Shown: positions 5,220-21,356 of the stretch, in pieces
Layout of the letters: the number at the start of each line of letters is the position of its first letter
Numbering within the stretch: position 1 is the first letter of the stretch
Source: Acaryochloris thomasi RCC1774
Lineage (GTDB): Bacteria > Cyanobacteriota > Cyanobacteriia > Thermosynechococcales > Thermosynechococcaceae
Direction of reading: 5' to 3'
DNA length: 32,000 nucleotides
Assembly (NCBI RefSeq): GCF_003231495.1
Contig: NZ_PQWO01000017.1
Location: 1 to 32,000 of the forward strand
Made by a program: the position numbers and the translations under genes
The notes under the pieces: generated by a model
The model's database searches: none
Told to the model about the DNA's origin: nothing
Seen by the model: only the letters and a program-made list of their open reading frames with translations

Positions 5220-5460
5220 TCAGCACTAACGATCCTGGGAAACTTGTCTATTCTGGGATAGTTATTAGATCCAGCCCCAGACAGTTTCTTGCCCCTTTCT
5301 GATAACGCTCAGATCAAGCTGTATCAAGGGGCGAACCTTTACCCATTTTGTCGAGCCTGGAATTGGCATTGTCCACAATCAATATTTTTAGCTGGCTTCC
5401 GTTGGTGATGTAAAAGGTGGCCGCGAGAAGAGAAAGCAGATCCATACTACTGATTTACTT

Positions 5461-6039
5461 TTAAGCCGCTGAGGTGAGTGCGAGGCCGCGATAGATTTGC
5501 TCGATCGCAAGGCTGAGGTCAATGCTTCGGAGTTCGATGGTGTCGCCTGCCTTGTAGTTGAGAATGATCCATTCGCCCGAGTCATTTTTGCGATACAGGT
5601 CAATTTCGATTTTGGTGGAGCTAACGAGTAGATAGTCTCGAAGAGCGGGGTTTTGGCGATACATCCTAAATTTGCCGCCGCGATCGTAGGCTTCGGTACT
5701 GTCGGACAGAACTTCAACAATGAGGCAGGGATAGGTAATGTATTGGATTGTGGTTTTGTCGCGATCGTCACAGGTAACGCTGGCGTCAGGGTAGGTGTAG
5801 TTGCTGGTTTCGAGGATATTGATTTTGATATCAGAATTGCCAGTGATGCAGCCCGTATTTTCTAGGTGGCTGTCGAATAGGGCGGTGAATCTGATGGCGA
5901 TGCGACCATGATTTACGCTGCCGCCGCTCATGGCATAGACTTGACCGTCAATATATTCATGTTTTTCTAGCTGCTGCTCTTCCCAAGCGAAGTAGGCTTC
6001 GGGGGTCAGTGGAGAGACGTTTTCCTGAGCAGCGATCAT
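5461..6039 (-). CDS. Uma2-family (DUF820) putative restriction endonuclease-like protein
   Basis: N-terminus LTPEAYFAWEEQQLEKHEYIDGQVYAMSGGSVNHGRIA and later PDASV...PCLIVEVLSDST match the pattern of the abundant cyanobacterial Uma2/DUF820 family. Confidence 0.75.
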   Translation of the reverse strand: MIAAQENVSPLTPEAYFAWEEQQLEKHEYIDGQVYAMSGGSVNHGRIAIRFTALFDSHLENTGCITGNSDIKINILETSNYTYPDASVTCDDRDKTTIQYITYPCLIVEVLSDSTEAYDRGGKFRMYRQNPALRDYLLVSSTKIEIDLYRKNDSGEWIILNYKAGDTIELRSIDLSLAIEQIYRGLALTSAA

Positions 6040-6219
6040 GATGAGAGGGCGTTTCTGTAGGGGCGGGAATTGACCCTATTTTATCGCGGTCGGGTGATGG
6101 GATGTGCGATCGCAACTTCGCTGCATTTTGGCAATCAAACGGATATGCTCAGGGGCGCGAAAGATTACCAAAAATTCAAACAGATATTACATTAGCTGAG
6201 CGTCATTTGCAGCATAGGG

Positions 6220-6666
6220 TTAGGCATCGTTACCAAAATATTTAACCATAGGAACTGAGCTATCTAGGTTTGGATCTCCTGCCACCTTATATCCAAGCCG
6301 GGCGTAGAAAGGTAGGGCATTCGGGCTAGCGTCTAGGTTTACTGTAATTTCTCCTTGTGCCCGGATTGCGGACTCTGCATATGCCATAAGTAACGAGCCA
6401 ACACCTGAGTGAGAAGCAGAGGGAGTCACGTAGAGTCCTTTGATTGTTGCGGCCTTGACCTCGATCCAACCCACAACAACCGATTCGCACTCTGCCACCC
6501 AGACACTGTTGTGCTTGATCGCTAATGCAGCGCGATCGGAACTGGCAGAGTTTGCCCAGCGCTCGGCTGCAGCGTGTCCGAAATCATCGGCAAGACTCAT
6601 AATGGCATGCCAACGTATCGCAAGAAGCCTCTGATCATCGCTGGAGATAGCAGACCGAATGTGCAT
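6220..6666 (-). CDS. GNAT-family N-acetyltransferase
   Basis: Acetyl-CoA motif region VTPSASHSGVGSLLMAYAESAIRAQG and C-terminal FYARLGYKV. The track ORF extends to 6747, but those 27 codons lie inside the dispersed repeat, so I prefer the ATG at 6666 (MHIRSAISS). Confidence 0.75.
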   Translation of the reverse strand: MHIRSAISSDDQRLLAIRWHAIMSLADDFGHAAAERWANSASSDRAALAIKHNSVWVAECESVVVGWIEVKAATIKGLYVTPSASHSGVGSLLMAYAESAIRAQGEITVNLDASPNALPFYARLGYKVAGDPNLDSSVPMVKYFGNDA

Positions 6667-13198: not shown

Positions 13199-14320
13199 TT
13201 AGCAGATACAGTCGTTGTCACAGCACGATAGGTCATCTAGAAACAGTCCTGACTGGCGGTAGGTTTCTAATGGCGCAGGATCAATGCCTAAACGGAGGGC
13301 GATCGCATGGGCCACCACCGCAAACCGCTGCCGGAACTTATAGATAAAGCAAAAAATCAGACCAGGATGACGCACTGAAGGGCCAACCACAAACAGACCA
13401 GGGGTGCGGGTAGACTCATCTTGCTCGTTCAAGACGGCATGATTCTCCGACCAGTGGAACAGCGGGGCAATTTGCTTCAAGCTGGTCTCAAAACCCGTAC
13501 AGAGAATGGGGGGATGCACCGTCAGCCATTTCTGGTATTCGCTGTAGACGGCATAGCCCCCTGGCATTTTTTTGACTTCGCCAATGGAGACATTGCTGAG
13601 CAGTTCGAGACGGCCCGTTTGATGGGCCAACCTCAGGCGCTGCAGCGTATAGGGTGACAATGAAACACTCGGATCCGTCTCCTGGCTACCCCACACCCCA
13701 GTCCGATCTAAAACCCTGACTTTTTTCCCTAAGGCGACTAAATGGGTCGCGGCATCCATACCACTTTCATAGCCGCCGATGATCGTAAATTCATCCCCTG
13801 GCAAATTGGACCAAGAGCGAATCTGGGAATTGTGAATGCAGTGGTCTGCGCCCAAAAATGGATTTAACTTTGGGTATTGGAATTCTCCAGCGGCCCAGAT
13901 CACAAACTGGGTTGTGAAGTCCCCGCCAGAAGTTTTTAGAATGAACCCGCGACACTGAGAGAGGGGTTCAATTGCTAAAACATCTGTTTCTGTCTGCACA
14001 GGCAACTGGAAGTGATCCACCACTGTTTGTAGGTAGAGCGCATACTGCTGGCCATTGATATGCTCTCGTCGAAAGGCGAGCGCTGGAGATGTTTTCAGGG
14101 TGATGGCATTGAGGTCGAGTAGGCCAAAACCATGACTCGGAAACGAGGGGGTAATCAAGTTCATCTCCACTGGCCAGCGGCTAAAGGAGGCTCCCACCTG
14201 CAGCCGATCCACCAGGATAAAGTTGTCCAGGCCCAGCTCCCGCAACGCAACAGCGCAACCCACCCCAGCAGGTCCAGCACCGACGATCACGACATCATAG
14301 AAAGAAGTTGATTGAGTCAT
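13199..14320 (-). CDS. FAD/NAD(P)-binding oxidoreductase (pyridine-nucleotide-disulfide / flavin monooxygenase-like)
   Basis: N-terminal dinucleotide fold YDVVIVGAGPAGVGCAVAL and a second Rossmann-like motif FTIIGGYESGMDAATHL. It lies between the DUF1636-like gene and the FeoB-like gene, with gaps of 20 and 35 nt. Confidence 0.7.
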   Translation of the reverse strand: MTQSTSFYDVVIVGAGPAGVGCAVALRELGLDNFILVDRLQVGASFSRWPVEMNLITPSFPSHGFGLLDLNAITLKTSPALAFRREHINGQQYALYLQTVVDHFQLPVQTETDVLAIEPLSQCRGFILKTSGGDFTTQFVIWAAGEFQYPKLNPFLGADHCIHNSQIRSWSNLPGDEFTIIGGYESGMDAATHLVALGKKVRVLDRTGVWGSQETDPSVSLSPYTLQRLRLAHQTGRLELLSNVSIGEVKKMPGGYAVYSEYQKWLTVHPPILCTGFETSLKQIAPLFHWSENHAVLNEQDESTRTPGLFVVGPSVRHPGLIFCFIYKFRQRFAVVAHAIALRLGIDPAPLETYRQSGLFLDDLSCCDNDCIC

Positions 14321-14340
14321 GGAATATTGTTCGGATACGA

Positions 14341-14733
14341 TTACAGGCTAGGACAGGGAATCCTTGCTAAAATCCCCTTCTGCATTGACTCTGGACGACT
14401 TTGACGGGGAACGATACCATCTGAGCTGGAGTGATATTGGTGGGCCAGTTGCAAAACGGCTGCCGCACTGTGCAGAGGCAGCATGTCACCAAACATTAAG
14501 GTGGTTTTCCCTGCTGCTGCTAGGGCAATGGTGCAGGAGCGATCGCAAGCACTTAGATAGTTCACCGCTTCGATCTTGAACTCAAGGGGGAGGGGCCACT
14601 GCTCCTGAAGCCGCAGTAAATTGCTGAGCAGGTGATAGCCACCGCGTTGTCCTACGTAGTCTCGTTGGGTACGCGAGAAGACACAGGACCGACAGACGAA
14701 TAGAGCGTGTTGAGCCATAATGGGCACTGCCAT
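14341..14733 (-). CDS. DUF1636-like predicted metal-binding protein (Cys pairs CRSC and CDRSC)
   Basis: HALFVCRSCVFS ... YLSACDRSCTIAL ... TLMFGDM matches my recollection of the DUF1636 family often found beside cobW genes. It is the first gene behind the Zur box at 14816. The start could be M1 or M6. Confidence 0.6.
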   Translation of the reverse strand: MAVPIMAQHALFVCRSCVFSRTQRDYVGQRGGYHLLSNLLRLQEQWPLPLEFKIEAVNYLSACDRSCTIALAAAGKTTLMFGDMLPLHSAAAVLQLAHQYHSSSDGIVPRQSRPESMQKGILARIPCPSL

Positions 14734-14815
14734 ACTGAAACGCTATGGGTGATCGCTAGCGAGATTATCCACCCGGAATGGATTGAACCGTTTGTACAAA
14801 ATCCTATACTTAAAA

Positions 14816-14832
14816 ATGATAATCATTCTCAT
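14816..14832. promoter_or_regulatory. Zur box (ATGATAATCATTCTCAT) upstream of the DUF1636-flavoprotein-FeoB-like operon
   Basis: Same palindrome family as 5142, 21396 and 27691. It lies 83 nt upstream of the ATG at 14733. Confidence 0.7.
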
Positions 14833-15148
14833 TGTCTTTAGCCACCCGACTTTCTTGCTCTCACAACCTGATAGCAGATGCGCCTCTGAGTTTGAATAGC
14901 GAGGAGGGTGCACAGTTTTTGTTGCGGATGCGAGGGGCTGAGATTTGCGATCGCACTTAGCTTGGCTCTGCTGCTGAGCGATTTGCTAAGACAGATATTA
15001 CGGCCTATCCGTTGATGGGAGAGGTGTTGGCGTAGTATCTGGATCAGATTGTGAATGTCACTTTGCCATGCGATGCAGGTAGTGTGCGAAATGGCCCGTT
15101 AGTTTTTGAATGCTAGGATCAGGCTAGCTCCTAAGTGCGAAAGATCTC

Positions 15149-15376
15149 ATGCTAACTTTGAATCAGCTTATTTCAGAGGCGACTGCCTTACCCGATACAG
15201 ACAAAGCAGTCCTCATAGACAAAGTTGTGGAAAGCATGGAAGAGCGAGTTGACCGGGACGTTTTGAGCCAGGGAATCCAGACAGCTCAAGACCGCATCGC
15301 TGAGATTGAGAGCGGTGCAGTCCAAGCTATTCCCGGAGATATTGCTTTAGCACAGGTTCGGCAACGCTTAGGGTAA
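15149..15376 (+). CDS. Type II antitoxin (putative addiction module component family)
   Basis: A 75-aa acidic protein (MLTLNQLISEATALPDTDKAVLIDKVVESM...IESG). Its TAA stop overlaps the ATG of the downstream toxin by 1 nt (TAATG). Confidence 0.7.
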   Translation: MLTLNQLISEATALPDTDKAVLIDKVVESMEERVDRDVLSQGIQTAQDRIAEIESGAVQAIPGDIALAQVRQRLG

Positions 15377-15666
15377 TGAAATATGAATTCCACCCAGCAG
15401 CCCTGCAAGAATATGCAGAGGCTGTAGAGTTTTTTGCCCAAAAAGACCGGCATCAGGATTTCATCGACATCATAGAAAGTTCAATATTTCGGGTTATTTC
15501 AGCACCAGAACGCTGGCCGGTTGTTCAAGGTGAGATTCGTCGTTATTTGACCCCCAAGTTTTCCTATGCCATCTTGTATCGAGTCTTTTCAGATAGAGTC
15601 GTAATTGCCGCAGTCATGAGTTGTCGTAGAGATCCCAATTATTGGCAAGATCGTTTGGAATCGTAA
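15376..15666 (+). CDS. Type II toxin, RelE/ParE superfamily
   Basis: A 96-aa protein (MKYEFHPAALQEYAEAVEFF...RRYLTPKFSYAILYRV...VVIAAVMSCRRDPNYW), which is the typical ParE/RelE plasmid-stabilisation pattern. It is translationally coupled to the upstream antitoxin. Confidence 0.75.
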   Translation: MKYEFHPAALQEYAEAVEFFAQKDRHQDFIDIIESSIFRVISAPERWPVVQGEIRRYLTPKFSYAILYRVFSDRVVIAAVMSCRRDPNYWQDRLES

Positions 15667-15967
15667 AGACCACCTCACTTGCTCCACGGTTCCCCCTGTA
15701 CACATCGTCCCCGCTTAATAAAAGCCAGAATTGCCCGCACAGTCACCTAACGTTCCACGCCAAGTAAACCTGATGCCTAAGAAAGGCCGTTTATTTGAAA
15801 CACAGTGAACCACAGAATGATAACCTTAGGGCCAGATTTATACGACTTCTGATTGATAATGCCCTTATCTCGGAGTCATCCGATTCTTGGCAGATAATAT
15901 CCTTCCAACCGGATTTATCAACCACCATCCATATAATCGTAGTTAGAGCTTCAATTGGAGAGCAGGA

Positions 15968-17221
15968 ATGGGCCGATATACCAAAGTCGACCTAGCATAC
16001 GAATTCTTGGTGGCCAAGGAGAAGCAAGACGAATCCTTTACTGTTCAACAACTATCCGAAGCAACCGGGTGGGCTGTCGTAACATGCAAAAATTATTTAT
16101 CAAAGCGTTGGCATCAGTATTTAGAAAGGGATGGAGATCAGTATTCAAGCGAAGCTATATTATTTCTAAGCAAAGAAGATTTTCAGGCTCTTCATTCTCA
16201 AAAGCTTCAACAAACTACCGACCTTTCCACGAGGGGAATGCTGATTCATAAAGCAAGGGAATTCGCCTTGCTTGCTGTCTCCGTATACAACAATCCATTC
16301 ACTAAATTCAAAACGTATGGGTTCATTGTAAATATTGTCGTCGCCTATGTTGCATTGTTTCATGCGATATTCGAGAAACGGGGAATCTGTTGCTCGCATC
16401 TTGATGCAGGCGGACATCCAGTACTTATTGACGGAGACGAGAAAGTCTGGGAGTTATCAGAGTGTGTACGTGAATATTGGAAAGGAGTAACAAGCCCAGT
16501 CGCAGCTAACCTACGCTTCCTAACTGGGCTTAGGAACAAAATTGAACACCGGAGTCTACCAGCTATTGACCTTGCGGTCGCTGGGGAGTGTCAGGCTGCA
16601 CTGGCGAACTTCGAAGATCTCCTCGTACAAGAGTTTGGTGATGAACACGCTCTGATAGCAGATCTGGCGATTGCCATGCAGCTTAGTAGAATTTCTGAGC
16701 AGGCACAGATTGACACACTAAAGCAGCTACAGAAGGAGAACTACAGAGTAGTTAAGGAGTACATGGAAACGTACCGGAACGATCTCGACGATGAGGTTGT
16801 CCAGAGTCAGAAATACCGTATTCGAGCATTCCTCGTTCCAAAACTTGGAAATCATGCAACAAGCAGCGATATTGCTATCGAATTTATCAACGTCAACGAA
16901 TTGTCTGAAGACGAACTTGCTAACTATGAACAAGGGGTGGCCTTCATAAAGGGAATTGAAAATCCCTACAAGCTTAGACCGACCAAAGTTATTGAACTTG
17001 TAAGGGAAAAAAGAGCGAGCTTCAATATGACCATGCACACGAAGTCTTGGAAGTACTATAAAGCTCGACCTCGTGAGCTGCAAAAGGGCTTTCGAGGGAA
17101 ATACTGTAGCTTTATCGAGGGATTCGATGGCTATCTCTATTCCAAGCACTGGGTGAACTTTCTTGTCAGTGAACTCGCGTCAGAAGAAACGATGACTTCA
17201 ATCAAAGCACAGGCTATTTAG
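15968..17221 (+). CDS. HEPN-motif protein (DUF3644/Abi-like), candidate defence or toxin RNase
   Basis: Exact RNxxxH motif RNKIEH at aa 189-194 (nt 16532-16549). It follows a helical segment LLAVSVYNNPFTKFKTYGFIVNIVVAYVALFHAIFEKRG that resembles DUF3644-type HEPN families. The gene is AT-richer, contains no HIP1, and is flanked by two TA pairs. Confidence 0.6.
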   Translation: MGRYTKVDLAYEFLVAKEKQDESFTVQQLSEATGWAVVTCKNYLSKRWHQYLERDGDQYSSEAILFLSKEDFQALHSQKLQQTTDLSTRGMLIHKAREFALLAVSVYNNPFTKFKTYGFIVNIVVAYVALFHAIFEKRGICCSHLDAGGHPVLIDGDEKVWELSECVREYWKGVTSPVAANLRFLTGLRNKIEHRSLPAIDLAVAGECQAALANFEDLLVQEFGDEHALIADLAIAMQLSRISEQAQIDTLKQLQKENYRVVKEYMETYRNDLDDEVVQSQKYRIRAFLVPKLGNHATSSDIAIEFINVNELSEDELANYEQGVAFIKGIENPYKLRPTKVIELVREKRASFNMTMHTKSWKYYKARPRELQKGFRGKYCSFIEGFDGYLYSKHWVNFLVSELASEETMTSIKAQAI

Positions 17222-17522
17222 AGATAAAGATGGTGTCTAGAACAACCGCAAAGAAATCAGTCCACATTGGATACTCACGAGATCGAGCGCAGGCCAGCTC
17301 TAATAAGCGGTTGCAGCAGACGAAAATTCCGCTATGTGAAATTTTTGCGTCTGTACCAAAACGTTAGATATCAGCCATCCAAAAACTCAATTAAGTGACC
17401 AAGTGTTGTGGTTGATGTCGGCGGAAAACGCGATCGCTATCTTGAACAAGTTGCTTACGACAACATGCATAACGACGGATCGATAGCATAGATAAAACTC
17501 TTGGTCAAAGCTGTGCAGATTG

Positions 17523-17840
17523 CTAGCACTTCGCAACAGAAATCTTTTCAGGAGTCAATCGATATCCCAGGGCATTGAGAATAGCATTCACACTTTCAAA
17601 TTTTGGACTTCCCTCGATTGATAGCGCTTTTTGCAATCCTTTCCGTGACATCCCCGCAGCCGCAGCAGTTGCGGTGATCCCCTTTGCTCGGGCGATGGTT
17701 CGTAGAGACGCAAGCAAAGCTCCGATATCACCATCTTGAGCATAGTCTTCAAAGAGAATAGAGAGATATTCATCTATTTCTTCAGGATGTTGCTGGAAAT
17801 ATTCAGCTTCTAGCTGATCAAGGGTTCTCAGTTGTCGCAT
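17523..17840 (-). CDS. HigA-type antitoxin (addiction module antidote protein, HTH)
   Basis: LRTIARAKGITATAAAAGMSRKGLQKALSIEGSPKFESVNAILNALGYRL is the typical HTH pattern of antidote proteins encoded downstream of killer proteins. It overlaps the upstream toxin ORF by 23 nt. Confidence 0.75.
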   Translation of the reverse strand: MRQLRTLDQLEAEYFQQHPEEIDEYLSILFEDYAQDGDIGALLASLRTIARAKGITATAAAAGMSRKGLQKALSIEGSPKFESVNAILNALGYRLTPEKISVAKC

Positions 17841-18201
17841 TGGTTAAATACTCCTTCCAGTAAGCTTGAGCCGTTTTAACATCAAGATTCTGAGTACTTT
17901 TGTCGCCGCCACAAAGCAAAATGACGAGCGTTGGGCCATTTTCGCCAAAGTAAACTCGATATCCAGGCCCGAAGAATAGTCTGAGTTCATAGACTCCACC
18001 CCCTAAAGCTTTGCAATCACCATAGTTACCTTGTTCGAGACGACGTAGACGACTCAAGATCCGCTTGCGACCCACCGTATCCCGAAGACTTGTAAGCCAT
18101 TGGCTGAAAGGCTCTTGACCTAATGCGTCTGCATAGACAAGGATCTGTTTCGGTAGTGAGGAGTTGGACAAGCTTCTATCAGAGTGCGTACCACAGTACA
18201 C
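17818..18201 (-). CDS. HigB/RelE-like toxin (addiction module killer protein family)
   Basis: FSQWLTSLRD...RILSRLRRLEQGNYGDCKALGGGVYELRLFFGPGYRVYFGENGPTLVILLCGGDKSTQNLDV is the characteristic killer-protein pattern. The toxin-first gene order is as in higBA. The true start may be downstream of the listed ATG. Confidence 0.75.
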   Translation of the reverse strand: MYCGTHSDRSLSNSSLPKQILVYADALGQEPFSQWLTSLRDTVGRKRILSRLRRLEQGNYGDCKALGGGVYELRLFFGPGYRVYFGENGPTLVILLCGGDKSTQNLDVKTAQAYWKEYLTNATTENP

Positions 18202-18282
18202 TACTAAATCTTATCGAATGTAAATCCTGTATTGGTGAGATCGCACTCAACCTCATTCTTCTGCTGACGGGCTGGCTGTTGT

Positions 18283-18924
18283 TCAAGACCTAGCGGCCCT
18301 ATGGCCTTCGTGCAGTGTAGCAATACAGGCAGAATCATCTGCACAGTGATAGCCCGCCAATAAGGCTCGATTGACTTCCACTACGTGATGAGAAAACTGA
18401 TGATCGACGGTCTTGGCATCGGGTAGCCGATCAGCGTCAGCTTGATGGATAATGACAGCCCCTGATCCGACATATTTCCCGGTTGGGATCTCCACGTCTT
18501 GGATCAGCGCATGCATCATCACAACACAATGATCACCCACCTTGGCATTAAACACTGTTGATCGAAAGCCAATGAAGCAGTCATTACCAATATAGGCAGG
18601 TCCGTGAATCAAGGCCATGTGGGTAATGCAGGTATTTTCGCCAATCCAGACCGAATAGGGCTGATGATCATCGCCTCTGACCCGCCCCTGTTCTAAGCCA
18701 TGAATAACCACACCATCCTGGATATTGGTGTTCGCACCGATATAAAAGGGCATGCCCTCGTCTGCTCGAATGGAAGTGCCGGGTGCAATCAATACCTGTT
18801 GACCCAAGCGAACATCTCCGATCAAACTTGACGAGGGATGCACGTAAGCTGACGGATCCATTTGGGGTTGGTCTAGCCCTCGATCCCAAGGTGTCGGGGG
18901 CGAAGGCTGCTGGCGTAGGGGCAT
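18283..18924 (-). CDS. Stand-alone gamma-class carbonic anhydrase-like protein (left-handed beta-helix), resembling the N-terminal domain of CcmM
   Basis: Hexapeptide-repeat sequence with candidate metal-ligand histidines (VVIHG at H75; THMALIHG at H102/H107). The C-terminal helix carries Cys194 and Cys200 ([10 protein letters not shown]). No RbcS-like repeats follow. It is the last gene of the thrS-hisI string. Confidence 0.75.
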
Positions 18925-18959
18925 TTTTTACTCCACAGGTTTAAATTCAAGTGAACCCA

Positions 18960-19445
18960 TCAAAGCTGTGTCGGATTGGGGGTATCCCCATAGATCAGTT
19001 GAGGGTCAAAGGTTTTTGCGGTTTCTGTAAAGGTCAATGTAATGGGATAGTTTTCCCTCACCGCTTCCGTTCCCAAAGGAATTTGACGATAAAAACAAGA
19101 TCGATACCCCACATGGCAACTGGCTCCAGAGTCTGCAACAGTCACCCGCATCCAAAGGCAGTCTTGATCATCATCAATCAGCAATTGCTGGACGTATTGG
19201 ATCAAGCCACTGGTCGCGCCTTTGTGCCAGAGGGTCTGACGACTGCGGCTGTAGTAATGGGCTTCTCCGGTTTCGATAGTTTTGACCAAGGCGGCCTGAT
19301 TCATATAGGCATGCATCAATAGTTCGCCTGTCTGGGCATCGGTTGTCACAACAGGAATTAAGCCCGCTTGATTAAATTTGGGCGCGAGGGACGTGCCTTC
19401 TTCGACAGCTTCTACACAGGTGCGATCCGCAAATAGAGTCGTCAT
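18960..19445 (-). CDS. hisI: Phosphoribosyl-AMP cyclohydrolase, monofunctional HisI paralog
   Basis: [48 protein letters not shown]...DCLWMRV....[10 protein letters not shown] is the canonical HisI pattern including the Cys/His metal-ligand positions. There is no HisE domain. Confidence 0.85.
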
Positions 19446-19505
19446 GGTAAACCTCGGTGATCACGATGGATGGAAACAGATACAGCTTTCATCAGTTCTC
19501 CTGAT

Positions 19506-21356
19506 CTAAATCTTTTGTTTAGCGTCAATGGCTGACTGCATTTTTTCGTACAGGTCACAGAGCGTTAACGGTCCCTGCTCTCCTGCCTGTCGGGTGCGAA
19601 TACTGAGGGTCTGGTTTTCCACTTCTCGCTTGCCCACGACCGCCACAACAGGAATTTTTTCTAGGGCAGCCAAACGAATTTGTTTCCCTAGACGCTCGCC
19701 GCTCCTATCGACCTCAGCTCGCCAGCCTTTCTGCGTAAGCTGGTTTAAGACTTCAAAGGCATACTCTTGCTGGGCATCACTGACGGTTAGCAATCGAATC
19801 TGCGTCGGCGCTAACCACAGCGGGAAATCCCCGGCATAGTTCTCGATCAAGATGCCAAAGAACCGCTCTAGCGATCCAAAAATGGCTCGATGGATCATGA
19901 TCGGGCGCTGCCGTGATCCGTCTGCGGCCACGTATTCCATCTCGAAGCGCTCTGGCAAGTTGAAATCGACTTGAATGGTGGAACATTGCCACAGCCGCCC
20001 GATCGCATCTCGAATCTTCAGATCGATTTTGGGACCATAGAACGCGCCGCCGCCCTCATCCGTGAGGTAATCCCAACCCTTACGCTCCAGGGCTGTGCTC
20101 AATGCCTGGGTGGCTAAGTCCCAAATGTCATCGCTGCCGACGGATTTGTCAGGCCGGGTTGAGAGGTTGATTTCATAATCGCTAAAGCCAAAGTCAGACA
20201 GCACCTTTTCGGTGAGATTCAGGACGGCCAAAATCTCATCCGCCACCTGATCAGGCAGACAAAAGACGTGGGCGTCATCTTGAGTAAAGCCCCTGACCCG
20301 CATCAGTCCATGCAGTGTCCCGGAGCGTTCGTAACGATAGACCGTTCCCAGCTCGGCCCACCGTAGGGGAAACTCTCGATAGGAGTGGAGTTCATGCTGG
20401 TAGGTGAGCACATGAAAGGGGCAGTTCATCGGCTTGATCTGATAATCCTGAGTTTCCACCGCCATTTGATCAAACATGCTGTCGCGGTAGAACTCAAAAT
20501 GGCCGGACGTTTTCCAGAGATCAAGATTGGCGATGTGGGGCGTATAGAGTAGCTCATACCCTGCTGCTAAATGTGCCTGCCGCCAGTAGTCTTCGATGAT
20601 GTGGCGAATCCTGGCCCCGCGAGGATGCCAAAAGACCAGCCCCCCTCCAGCAGCCTCTTCAATACTGAACAGCTTCAGTGTCTTTCCCAAAAGACGGTGA
20701 TCTCGGCGCTGAGCCTCTTCTTTTTGGTGTAGGTAGGCTTTTAACTGCTTTGGAGTTTCCCAGGCGGTTCCATAGATCCGCTGCAGTTGAGCTTGGGTTT
20801 CATCGCCACGCCAATAAGCTCCAGCGACACTTTCGAGCATGAATGCCTTTGAATGCAGCTCGCCTGTACTGTTGAGATGGGGACCCGAGCACAGATCCCA
20901 CCAAAATTCATCAGGGGCCACTGACAACGGAGCAATCAGCGAGGCTTCCGCCTCTGGATGCTGTGTCCGGCCTGTGTCAGGACTGCCAATGAAATAGCGG
21001 GTAATCGCTTCCTCTGCAGGAATCTGGGCCAATATTTCTAATTTGTAGGGTTCTTGCAACTGTTCTAGTTCAGCCGTCATCTGATCGCGATCCACTTGTT
21101 CGCGGATGATGGGCAAATTGGCCTTGATGATGCGCCGCATCTGAGTTGCGATCGCATCCAGATCCTCTGGCGTAAAAGCCTGGGCACGGTCAAAGTCATA
21201 GTAGAAACCTGTCTCAGTCGTTGGACCAATCGTCACCTTTGTCTCAGGAAACAGATGCTGCACCGCCATAGCCATCACATGAGCGCAGGTGTGGCGAAGT
21301 CGCTGTAGCTGTTCGGTGGAATTAGGCGCTGACAGCGTACGAGAAACGGTAGACAT
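19506..21356 (-). CDS. thrS: Threonyl-tRNA synthetase paralog lacking the N-terminal TGS domain
   Basis: Begins 20 aa before the editing-domain RHTCAH motif (E. coli has about 68 aa before RHSCAH). The catalytic Zn-ligand contexts are retained (PMNCPFH, FTQDDAHVFC, IMIHRAIFGSLERF). The divergent folE starts only 143 nt upstream, which is too little room for a TGS domain. Confidence 0.9.
   Translation of the reverse strand: MSTVSRTLSAPNSTEQLQRLRHTCAHVMAMAVQHLFPETKVTIGPTTETGFYYDFDRAQAFTPEDLDAIATQMRRIIKANLPIIREQVDRDQMTAELEQLQEPYKLEILAQIPAEEAITRYFIGSPDTGRTQHPEAEASLIAPLSVAPDEFWWDLCSGPHLNSTGELHSKAFMLESVAGAYWRGDETQAQLQRIYGTAWETPKQLKAYLHQKEEAQRRDHRLLGKTLKLFSIEEAAGGGLVFWHPRGARIRHIIEDYWRQAHLAAGYELLYTPHIANLDLWKTSGHFEFYRDSMFDQMAVETQDYQIKPMNCPFHVLTYQHELHSYREFPLRWAELGTVYRYERSGTLHGLMRVRGFTQDDAHVFCLPDQVADEILAVLNLTEKVLSDFGFSDYEINLSTRPDKSVGSDDIWDLATQALSTALERKGWDYLTDEGGGAFYGPKIDLKIRDAIGRLWQCSTIQVDFNLPERFEMEYVAADGSRQRPIMIHRAIFGSLERFFGILIENYAGDFPLWLAPTQIRLLTVSDAQQEYAFEVLNQLTQKGWRAEVDRSGERLGKQIRLAALEKIPVVAVVGKREVENQTLSIRTRQAGEQGPLTLCDLYEKMQSAIDAKQKI

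Follow-up and report, generated by a model that had tools for sequence, protein, structure and literature searches.

A DUF3644-type HEPN protein in an accessory islet of Acaryochloris thomasi RCC1774: a candidate single-protein defence RNase of EC042_2821 type

HEPN proteins are metal-independent RNases that usually dimerise and have a composite Rx4-6H site, as in Cas13, Csm6, RnlA/LsoA, PrrC/RloC, HepT and ApeA. Here, we have analysed a gene for a 417-amino-acid protein carrying such a motif at positions 15,968 to 17,221 of a 32,000-nucleotide stretch of the cyanobacterium Acaryochloris thomasi RCC1774 (contig NZ_PQWO01000017.1, positions 1 to 32,000; hereafter the window). Comparison of sequences makes it highly likely that the protein belongs to the EC042_2821-type HEPN family (DUF3644; PADLOC PDC-S19). 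That it is a single-protein defence RNase against invading genetic elements is the explanation we favour, with moderate confidence.

DUF3644 was recognised as a HEPN family by Anantharaman et al. (2013, Biol Direct 8:15; PMC3710099). The EC042_2821 HEPN family was described there with fusions to winged helix-turn-helix (wHTH), restriction endonuclease (REase) and zinc-ribbon domains, the wHTH being found 'in some' members, and restriction-modification (R-M) operon contexts were reported for it; a C-terminal domain (CTD) of about 180 amino acids was defined as a 'novel REase (EC042_2821_CTD)' (PMC3710099). In PADLOC the family corresponds to PDC-S19, one of the phage-defence candidate (PDC) systems. 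These were picked as candidates by 'guilt-by-embedding', from their position within BREX, DISARM and type I R-M loci. Our literature search returned no paper on PDC-S19, and both PDC-S19 and DUF3644 are also absent from the text supplements of Payne et al.

Two other described systems are close in kind. HEC-08 is a different DUF3644 HEPN protein that protects E. coli from phage, and its motif residue H128 is essential (10.1101/2024.01.29.577857). Ishtar (ist1/ist2) of Acinetobacter baumannii consists of HEPN proteins of 170-260 amino acids that clear plasmid RP4 and whose genes occur in variable regions, integrons and P4 satellites (10.64898/2026.07.06.735840). The three-domain architecture of the window protein was already described in 2013 (PMC3710099), its family is held in a defence-candidate database and its CTD is the family's own; what is new is a cyanobacterial, horizontally acquired copy of a previously described family. 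The gene is of an expected accessory type and leaves current understanding unchanged. The CTD and a repeat upstream of the gene are the parts of most further interest.

The Rx4H motif, the predicted domains and the family

The gene and its parts are as follows.

15957-15960, + strand: GGAG, Shine-Dalgarno-like, 7 nt 5' of the ATG of the HEPN gene, read from the sequence
15968-17221, + strand: coding sequence of the predicted wHTH-HEPN-CTD protein (EC042_2821-type / PADLOC PDC-S19), 417 amino acids
15968-16192, + strand: N-terminal wHTH, about aa 1-75, predicted by model and Foldseek
16241-16783, + strand: HEPN domain (Pfam DUF3644), aa 92-272, from PF12358 and fold matches
16532-16549, + strand: RNKIEH, predicted catalytic Rx4H motif of the HEPN domain, from conservation in relatives
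16784-17218, + strand: family-specific CTD, aa 273-417, within the PDC-S19 models

The open reading frame (ORF) is intact over 417 codons from ATG to TAG, and the choice of ATG is backed by aligned homologs that begin M-[SG]-R-Y-x-K-V-D-L-A-Y. A preliminary description of the window, made from the letters alone, had called the product an abortive-infection or toxin RNase, which we keep as a candidate function, and had located RNKIEH at aa 189-194. The location is exact, the motif being encoded by agg aac aaa att gaa cac at nt 16532-16549.

The bare Rx4-6H pattern is expected by chance and is by itself uninformative. Three such sites occur in the protein (R89, R138 and R189), and at least one is found in 82% of composition-preserving shuffles of it; the stricter RNxxxH pattern arises in only 2% of the shuffles. 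What gives the RNKIEH site its meaning is the conservation of R189 and H194 across divergent relatives. Among 150 cluster representatives of 26-48% identity, R189 is kept in 143 of 145 and H194 in 145 of 145, so that the Rx4-6H motif, whose non-conservation had been named beforehand among the observations that would speak against a HEPN RNase, proved to be conserved. N108, N181, Q209 and N214 are near-invariant in the same representatives. In 80 closer homologs (53-71% identity), L188, R189, N190, I192, E193, H194 and R195 are invariant, and the sites at R89 and R138 show no conservation among homologs. Every family-invariant residue is retained in the window protein.

The helical region around the motif, suspected from the start to be of DUF3644-type HEPN, matches PF12358 (DUF3644) over aa 92-272 with an E-value of 8.4e-48, covering profile positions 2-182 of 183 and scoring 162.8 bits against a gathering cut-off of 27.6. 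The same profile matches all 71 divergent relatives searched with it. NCBIfam has no model for the protein. A sequence search of the PDB with the single protein found no relevant relative, and a profile built from the 71 divergent relatives reached three PDB sequences, all of them HepT toxins and all matched weakly at the motif helix. A full-length AlphaFold2 model from 80 sequences (mean pLDDT 75.7) places HEPN-bundle helices at residues 88-108, 115-137, 177-192 and 205-223, the motif falling where helix 177-192 ends, and has a long helix, 244-272, after the bundle. In Foldseek comparison with the PDB, the HEPN region of the model matches AF_0298 (2hsb, probability 0.99, TM-target 0.62) and the HepT/SO_3166 entries 7bxo, 6m6w and 5yep (probability 0.8-0.97), which bears out the expected HEPN fold; the E-values are weak (0.14-0.35) because the query was a three-domain model.

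The first 90 or so residues, earlier taken for a small nucleic-acid-binding module, are predicted to fold as a wHTH. Helices 5-19, 26-33 and 37-47 are followed by strands 52-55 and 58-61 at pLDDT 81-92, and Foldseek matches the region to IclR-type 2g7u (probability 0.99), BrxR 7t8l (0.93) and also FadR. This module is present in 46 of 108 full-length family representatives, or roughly 40%. In one subgroup of close homologs (P0064, P0067, P0072, P0091 and P0106; about 487-532 amino acids, 58-63% identity), a conserved extension of about 95 amino acids precedes the wHTH.

For family membership, the reference protein is the DUF3644 protein of E. coli 042 (437 amino acids, NC_017626.1 3013188-3014501), which lies after ssrA and an integrase gene and before a DNA methyltransferase gene. 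Its product name, size and position indicate that it is very probably the EC042_2821 prototype. In BLASTP the window protein is 21% identical to it (E 1e-9) over aa 11-215, that is, the wHTH and HEPN domains, and RNKIEH aligns with RDQAVH; the C-terminal halves of the two proteins gave no pairwise alignment. The PDC-S19 models PDLC04950 and PDLC04952 match both proteins along the HEPN domain and CTD, and we therefore place the two in one family, CTD included. PADLOC, the database to which the preliminary description had pointed, returns PDLC04950 at E 3.7e-98 over aa 92-412, together with its siblings PDLC04948, 04949, 04952 and 04953, and thereby lists the protein as a stand-alone, single-gene phage-defence candidate; no PADLOC family besides PDC-S19 matched at E up to 1.

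The window protein resembles the EC042_2821 family in its optional N-terminal wHTH, its DUF3644-type HEPN domain with Rx4H and its CTD of about 150-180 amino acids. It differs in setting, as the window gene is outside any R-M operon and its neighbours are toxin-antitoxin pairs. Elsewhere an R-M association is seen in the methyltransferase beside the E. coli 042 copy and in type I specificity subunits at 2 of the 33 closest loci; contexts vary, and an R-M setting is a tendency of the family more than a strict mark of it. With PDC-S19 it shares the single-gene organisation in addition to the strong profile match, but the window copy is a cyanobacterial one flanked by toxin-antitoxin pairs, and its additional wHTH falls outside the PDC-S19 models.

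The CTD was said at first to hold no recognisable motif, and the models leave it so. In the full-length model the C-terminal alpha/beta region is poorly modelled at aa 280-330. A separate model of aa 225-417, built from 149 diverse sequences, gives a confident beta-alpha-alpha-beta-beta-alpha-alpha arrangement for aa 334-417 (pLDDT about 92) and values of 57-69 for aa 284-333. A Foldseek search of the PDB with this model gave nothing significant: the best E-value is 4.5, and small DNA-binding winged-helix proteins lead the weak matches, with probabilities of at most 0.15. Among divergent relatives, conservation in the domain reaches 75% for D301, 65% for E305, 75% for K328 (K or R in 93%), 76% for H357 and 91% for Y391. 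PF18740, the Pfam model for this domain, matches the window protein below threshold (E 0.12, aa 345-413), the E. coli 042 protein at E 0.0033 and 6 of the 71 divergent relatives weakly (best E 0.002).

These results bear on whether the CTD could be an active REase-fold DNase and the true effector, with the HEPN domain regulatory or a second nuclease. The published assignment of a novel REase fold to the C-terminal 180 or so residues of EC042_2821, with its R-M contexts (PMC3710099), speaks for this idea, as do the recurrence of the weak PF18740 matches at one region in the window protein, its relatives and the prototype and the fact that D301, E305 and K328 lead the polar conservation of the domain. 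However, these three residues are just 65-75% conserved compared with 99-100% for the HEPN residues, the window sequence has no canonical (D/E)xK spacing (it reads FIK at 326-328), the dedicated model has no REase match in the PDB and no PF18740 match reaches the Pfam threshold. We regard a DNase effector in the CTD as improbable. A REase fold for the CTD was not supported by the separate model and its PDB search, although the domain may still have one; the assignment is a prediction of the literature that our modelling did not reproduce. A sensor or binding role for the CTD seems more likely than a second catalytic site.

Described relatives, stand-alone status and a proposed mechanism

HEC-08 is the nearest experimentally supported relative, being likewise a single DUF3644 HEPN protein with Rx4-6H, but it has C-terminal zinc ribbons and no N-terminal wHTH. 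We rejected membership of HEC-08 for the window protein, whose CTD has a single conserved cysteine (Cys380) and no CxxC pairs. Ishtar is similar in being monogenic and in joining an N-terminal HEPN domain (DUF4145 or DUF3644) to an uncharacterised alpha/beta C-terminal domain. Membership of Ishtar was rejected as well: when the window-family alignment was compared by hhalign with the first 17 distinct sequences of Table S3 of the Ishtar study, the probability was 10% and the match covered 17 columns at the RNxxEH helix only. No accession or signature peptide of the window family occurs anywhere in the Ishtar supplement, including its homolog Table S3.

HepT/MntA (SO_3166/SO_3165; PDB 5yep, 6m6w and 7bxo) is among the best solved relatives of the HEPN core, and the HepT proteins are RNase toxins with Rx4H. 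However, HepT has about 130 amino acids and is neutralised by an adjacent MNT nucleotidyltransferase, whereas the window protein has 417 amino acids and three domains. A HEPN-MNT identity was rejected on the genes nearby, which are ParE/Unstab_antitox and Gp49/HI1420 in the window, and no nucleotidyltransferase recurs among the neighbours of the relatives.

Those neighbours were the two nearest ORFs on each side at the 33 closest loci, 122 proteins in all, which we compared with Pfam, PADLOC and all-against-all BLAST. No Pfam or PADLOC family occurs in more than three of the 122. In line with the early remark that no cognate antitoxin adjoins the gene in the window, no partner is conserved across the 33 loci. 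The sole recurring neighbour is a second HEPN protein (HEPN_Cthe2314 / PDC-S64), found at three loci. The ORFs that stand at short distance upstream in the nearest relatives are mutually unrelated, and tblastn found no remnants of the relatives' neighbour genes in the islet that carries the window gene. A hidden antitoxin or partner gene was rejected on these two grounds, and comparison of the loci shows the HEPN gene to be a single-gene unit.

We propose that the protein would act alone against phages, and perhaps against plasmids too. The HEPN domain, probably dimeric, would be kept inactive until triggered; the wHTH, the CTD or both could sense nucleic acid or protein derived from the invader; and the activated HEPN domain would then cleave RNA and so arrest the infected cell or the replication of the invader. 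Transcription probably starts from the host-type, promoter-like repeat that abuts the gene. We assign sensor and effector to a single chain because of what is known of HEPN proteins and because of the precedent of the motif histidine in HEC-08.

Several points weigh against a defence RNase. HEPN domains are found in non-defence proteins too. The sensor role of the wHTH and CTD is purely inferred, and the CTD has no fold match and is just partly modelled. The window flanks of the gene hold toxin-antitoxin pairs only and no recognised defence systems. The family is nearly absent from phage genomes, with one match at 32% identity; there is also one structural match in Siphoviridae, at probability 0.99. 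Finally, PDC systems are explicitly unvalidated, and members of PDC-S19 / EC042_2821 are experimentally untested.

Distribution and mobile carriers

The window protein has 1429 homologs, all named just 'DUF3644 domain-containing'. The family as a whole makes up 959 clusters at 50% identity. It ranges over Proteobacteria, Bacteroidota, Acidobacteriota, Planctomycetota, Patescibacteria and Firmicutes and includes one archaeal (Thermoplasmata) metagenome-assembled genome (MAG). The best homologs (63-71% identity) are almost all gammaproteobacterial, in Bowmanella, Alteromonas, Pseudoalteromonas, Shewanella, Vibrio, Aeromonas, Klebsiella and Xenorhabdus, those at 70-71% being Gammaproteobacteria, and a Catenovulum megaplasmid carries a homolog at 71% beside a transposase gene. 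The 168 relatives in reference genomes include only one cyanobacterial copy, at 49% identity. In a neighbour-joining tree, drawn with no bootstrap, the window protein is nested in a gammaproteobacterial clade. The ThrS encoded beside the islet, by contrast, is 100% identical to that of A. thomasi RCC1774. On this evidence, together with the low GC and the empty site described below, the HEPN gene reached A. thomasi horizontally from a marine gammaproteobacterial lineage.

The other cyanobacterial copy, at 5388-6602 of locus L025 (MAG 'Cyanobacteria bacterium P01_G01_bin.19'), has an in-frame stop in the conserved stretch ...GKYCG*IEGFDGYLY... This marks either a pseudogene or an assembly error.

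Homologs recur on satellites, integrative islands and plasmids. In Serratia and Klebsiella (L088-L093) the homolog stands directly after a P4-type integrase gene at smpB/ssrA within a P4-like satellite; these satellites carry Ogr/Delta, AlpA, ASH and primase genes, and a Ser/Thr kinase gene follows the homolog. Other Enterobacteriaceae (L082-L087) have an islet of integrase, DUF3644 and HEPN_Cthe2314 (PDC-S64) genes. The E. coli 042 copy (L099 3188-4501), which the methyltransferase gene follows, is part of an integrative mobilizable element that is linked to ssrA and encodes a MobQ relaxase. A DNA search of E. coli complete genomes with an enterobacterial homolog, in near and distant modes, found none; the 042 copy was found beside ssrA. 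The Bowmanella homolog lies in a toxin-antitoxin-rich islet with RelE, ParDE and Phd genes, and type I R-M specificity subunits and other defence genes are among the neighbours of homologs. This company of mobile elements and defence genes is part of the case for a defence RNase. Twenty-seven plasmids carry homologs.

Such carriers raise the question of whether the protein is cargo that serves competition between mobile elements, or their maintenance, instead of protecting the host from phage. It could be an Ishtar-like, anti-plasmid incompatibility factor, which would destroy a rival replicon's RNA primers or its transcripts, or an addiction-type toxin that stabilises the islet. The integrases beside homologs in P4-like satellites, the MobQ mobilizable element and the plasmid copies all fit this explanation, and the rest of the window islet consists of addiction-type toxin-antitoxin pairs. 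Ishtar itself shows that plasmid clearance by a single protein of HEPN and CTD need cost the cell little viability (10.64898/2026.07.06.735840). However, the window protein falls outside the Ishtar family by the hhalign result given above, and it has no antitoxin partner for classical addiction. The mechanism would overlap with that of a host defence RNase, the target being the sole difference. We consider the cargo explanation possible but unlikely, and retain defence of the host cell against invading elements as the preferred one.

To our knowledge, few anti-phage systems of cyanobacteria have so far been characterised by experiment. The A. thomasi gene, as an intact and recently mobile copy with a host promoter-like element, is a reasonable candidate for testing defence by PDC-S19 / EC042_2821, and is suited to asking what the unclassified CTD senses.

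The accessory islet and the upstream repeat

The gene lies in an islet with two self-contained toxin-antitoxin pairs.

14992-18300, no strand: low-GC accessory islet, 3.3 kb, taking the place of 303 nt in the relative L095
15149-15666, + strand: type II toxin-antitoxin pair, Unstab_antitox (PF09720, 3.9e-9) and ParE-like (PF05016, 4.8e-6), on the 5' side of the HEPN gene
17523-18201, - strand: HigB/Gp49-like toxin (PF05973, 3.1e-5) and HI1420-type antidote (PF21716, 1.8e-16), on the 3' side of the HEPN gene

The site is a hotspot at which accessory genes turn over, and the islet with the HEPN gene is specific to the strain, since one relative has the site empty and another has different cargo there. 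In L095, whose ThrS is 90% identical, a hexapeptide gene and DUF1636 are about 500 nt apart, and blastn aligns window 14311-14991 with L095 14586-13900 and window 18301-19469 with L095 13596-12426. In L094, whose ThrS is 89% identical, other cargo fills the same hisI-DUF1636 interval. Window 17363-17830, which holds the HI1420 antidote and its 3' flank, is 92% identical to L094 14616-15082, compared with 82-86% in the housekeeping flanks.

The GC content of the islet is 0.453 and that of the HEPN gene 0.443, with 0.447 at third codon positions (GC3), against 0.52-0.53 (GC3 0.57-0.58) in the flanks. The gene is thus AT-richer than its surroundings, as had been noticed, and the same holds for its lack of HIP1: the window has 24 HIP1 sites where 0.6 are expected, and none is in the HEPN gene or in the window-specific segment 15058-17362.

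Directly upstream of the HEPN gene is a dispersed repeat. Its copies, with the promoter-like hexamer it contains, are these.

15802-15948, + strand: dispersed, promoter/leader-like repeat of about 145 nt, directly 5' of the HEPN gene (ATG at 15968)
15932-15937, + strand: TATAAT, -10-like hexamer in the repeat core, 30 nt before the ATG, conserved or nearly so in all copies
6832-6690, - strand: repeat copy, then a GNAT gene
11476-11418, - strand: repeat copy, then a 75-aa ORF
27207-27151, - strand: repeat copy, then a treble-clef zinc-finger gene
L094 1818-1964, + strand: repeat copy ending 38 nt before a TIR-domain gene
L100 1736-1933 (metagenome contig), + strand: repeat copy abutting the ATG of a 187-aa ORF

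Every copy ends just 5' of a start codon on the same strand, at a distance of 15-40 nt in the five copies of the window and L094. The copy before the HEPN gene is 76% identical to that in L094. Full copies consist of three hairpin units of approximately GATAAT-N13-GGAGTTATC followed by CCGTATAATTGTAGTTA, and the others have fewer units. A 66-aa ORF at 15795-15995, already suspected to be spurious, overlaps this non-coding repeat. The TATAAT at 15932-15937 is inferred to be a promoter element. The repeat was not found in viral contigs and has no match in Rfam, and the consensus fold from two sequences is weak (-7.9 kcal/mol); a known or structured RNA was unsupported by these last two results.

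In our reading the repeat is a promoter/leader module of the host that stands before unrelated accessory genes, and possibly a recombination junction as well. In L094 and L100, which are syntenic, homology stops precisely where the repeat has its 3' end, and the two strains differ in the genes that come next. A more specific idea, that the repeat is a lineage-specific junction for gene capture and expression, a portable promoter behind which defence genes, the HEPN gene being one such cassette, are swapped in the manner of an integron with no integrase in sight, is doubtful in our view.

This upstream arrangement matters for the question of whether the HEPN gene could be a silent or decaying passenger with no present function in A. 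thomasi. Its foreign composition, its position in a variable hotspot and the in-frame stop in L025, the only other cyanobacterial copy, would agree with a passenger. On the other side, the 417-codon frame is intact, all family-invariant residues are kept, and the gene is directly preceded by a promoter-like module of host type and by a good Shine-Dalgarno site. A passenger therefore appears highly improbable to us.

The chromosomal setting raises one more alternative, namely a regulator or RNA-processing factor outside defence, in which the wHTH would bind DNA and the HEPN domain would bind a ligand or process host RNA. An N-terminal wHTH is typical of transcription factors, there are regulatory HEPN families such as MtlR (PMC3710099), and the gene lies inside a cluster of metal-homeostasis type. 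Yet the family is patchily distributed across many phyla through horizontal transfer, the gene is absent at this site from the closest relatives, and homologs are associated with integrases and satellites. Moreover, the Rx4H motif is strictly conserved, and over half of the family lacks the wHTH. We judge such a regulator very improbable, and keep the single-protein defence RNase as our working explanation.

The cluster in question surrounds thrS and hisI. In L094 and L095 these two genes (window 18960-21356 region) stand beside genes for a cobW-family GTPase and GTP cyclohydrolase I, and the L095 thrS region additionally has metallophosphatase, ALAD and ABC-3 genes. We take this cluster to resemble a zinc-starvation (Zur) regulon paralog cluster. 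The islet with the HEPN gene was inserted inside this metal-homeostasis-type cluster.

Several features of the islet ends are recorded here. The hexapeptide gene, which is gamma-carbonic-anhydrase-like, encodes 213 amino acids in the window (18283-18924, - strand) and 310 in L095 (12973-13905); the extra C-terminus of the L095 protein matches RuBisCO_small and is encoded by exactly the 303 nt that the islet replaces. The insertion of the islet appears, from this sequence comparison, to have truncated a CcmM-like protein. A 32-nt direct repeat, D2 (14946-14977 and 18236-18267), brackets the islet; its two copies are 75% identical and contain HIP1. As att-like ends of the islet the copies are suggestive in position, but their identity is only 75% and the junctions also involve the 303-nt deletion. 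In L094, homologs of window 14849-14991, about 144 nt long, flank the cargo on both sides (14338-14479 and about 16820-16960). Such bracketing repeats may be recombination sites for the exchange of cargo at the hisI-DUF1636 hotspot. L094 lacks the Gp49/HigB-like toxin gene (window 17818-18201), and the antitoxin there is an orphan.

A last feature lies between the HEPN gene and the antidote gene, which converge on a 300-nt spacer.

17316-17354, + strand: interrupted hairpin of 13 bp, CAGACGAAAAUU...AAUUUUUGCGUCUG, about 95 nt after the stop codon, with no U-tract

The segment 17215-17420 folds at -54.9 kcal/mol (z -2.84), and homology to L094 restarts at 17363. It is possible that the hairpin acts as a terminator, or that it marks the edge of the segment specific to the window.

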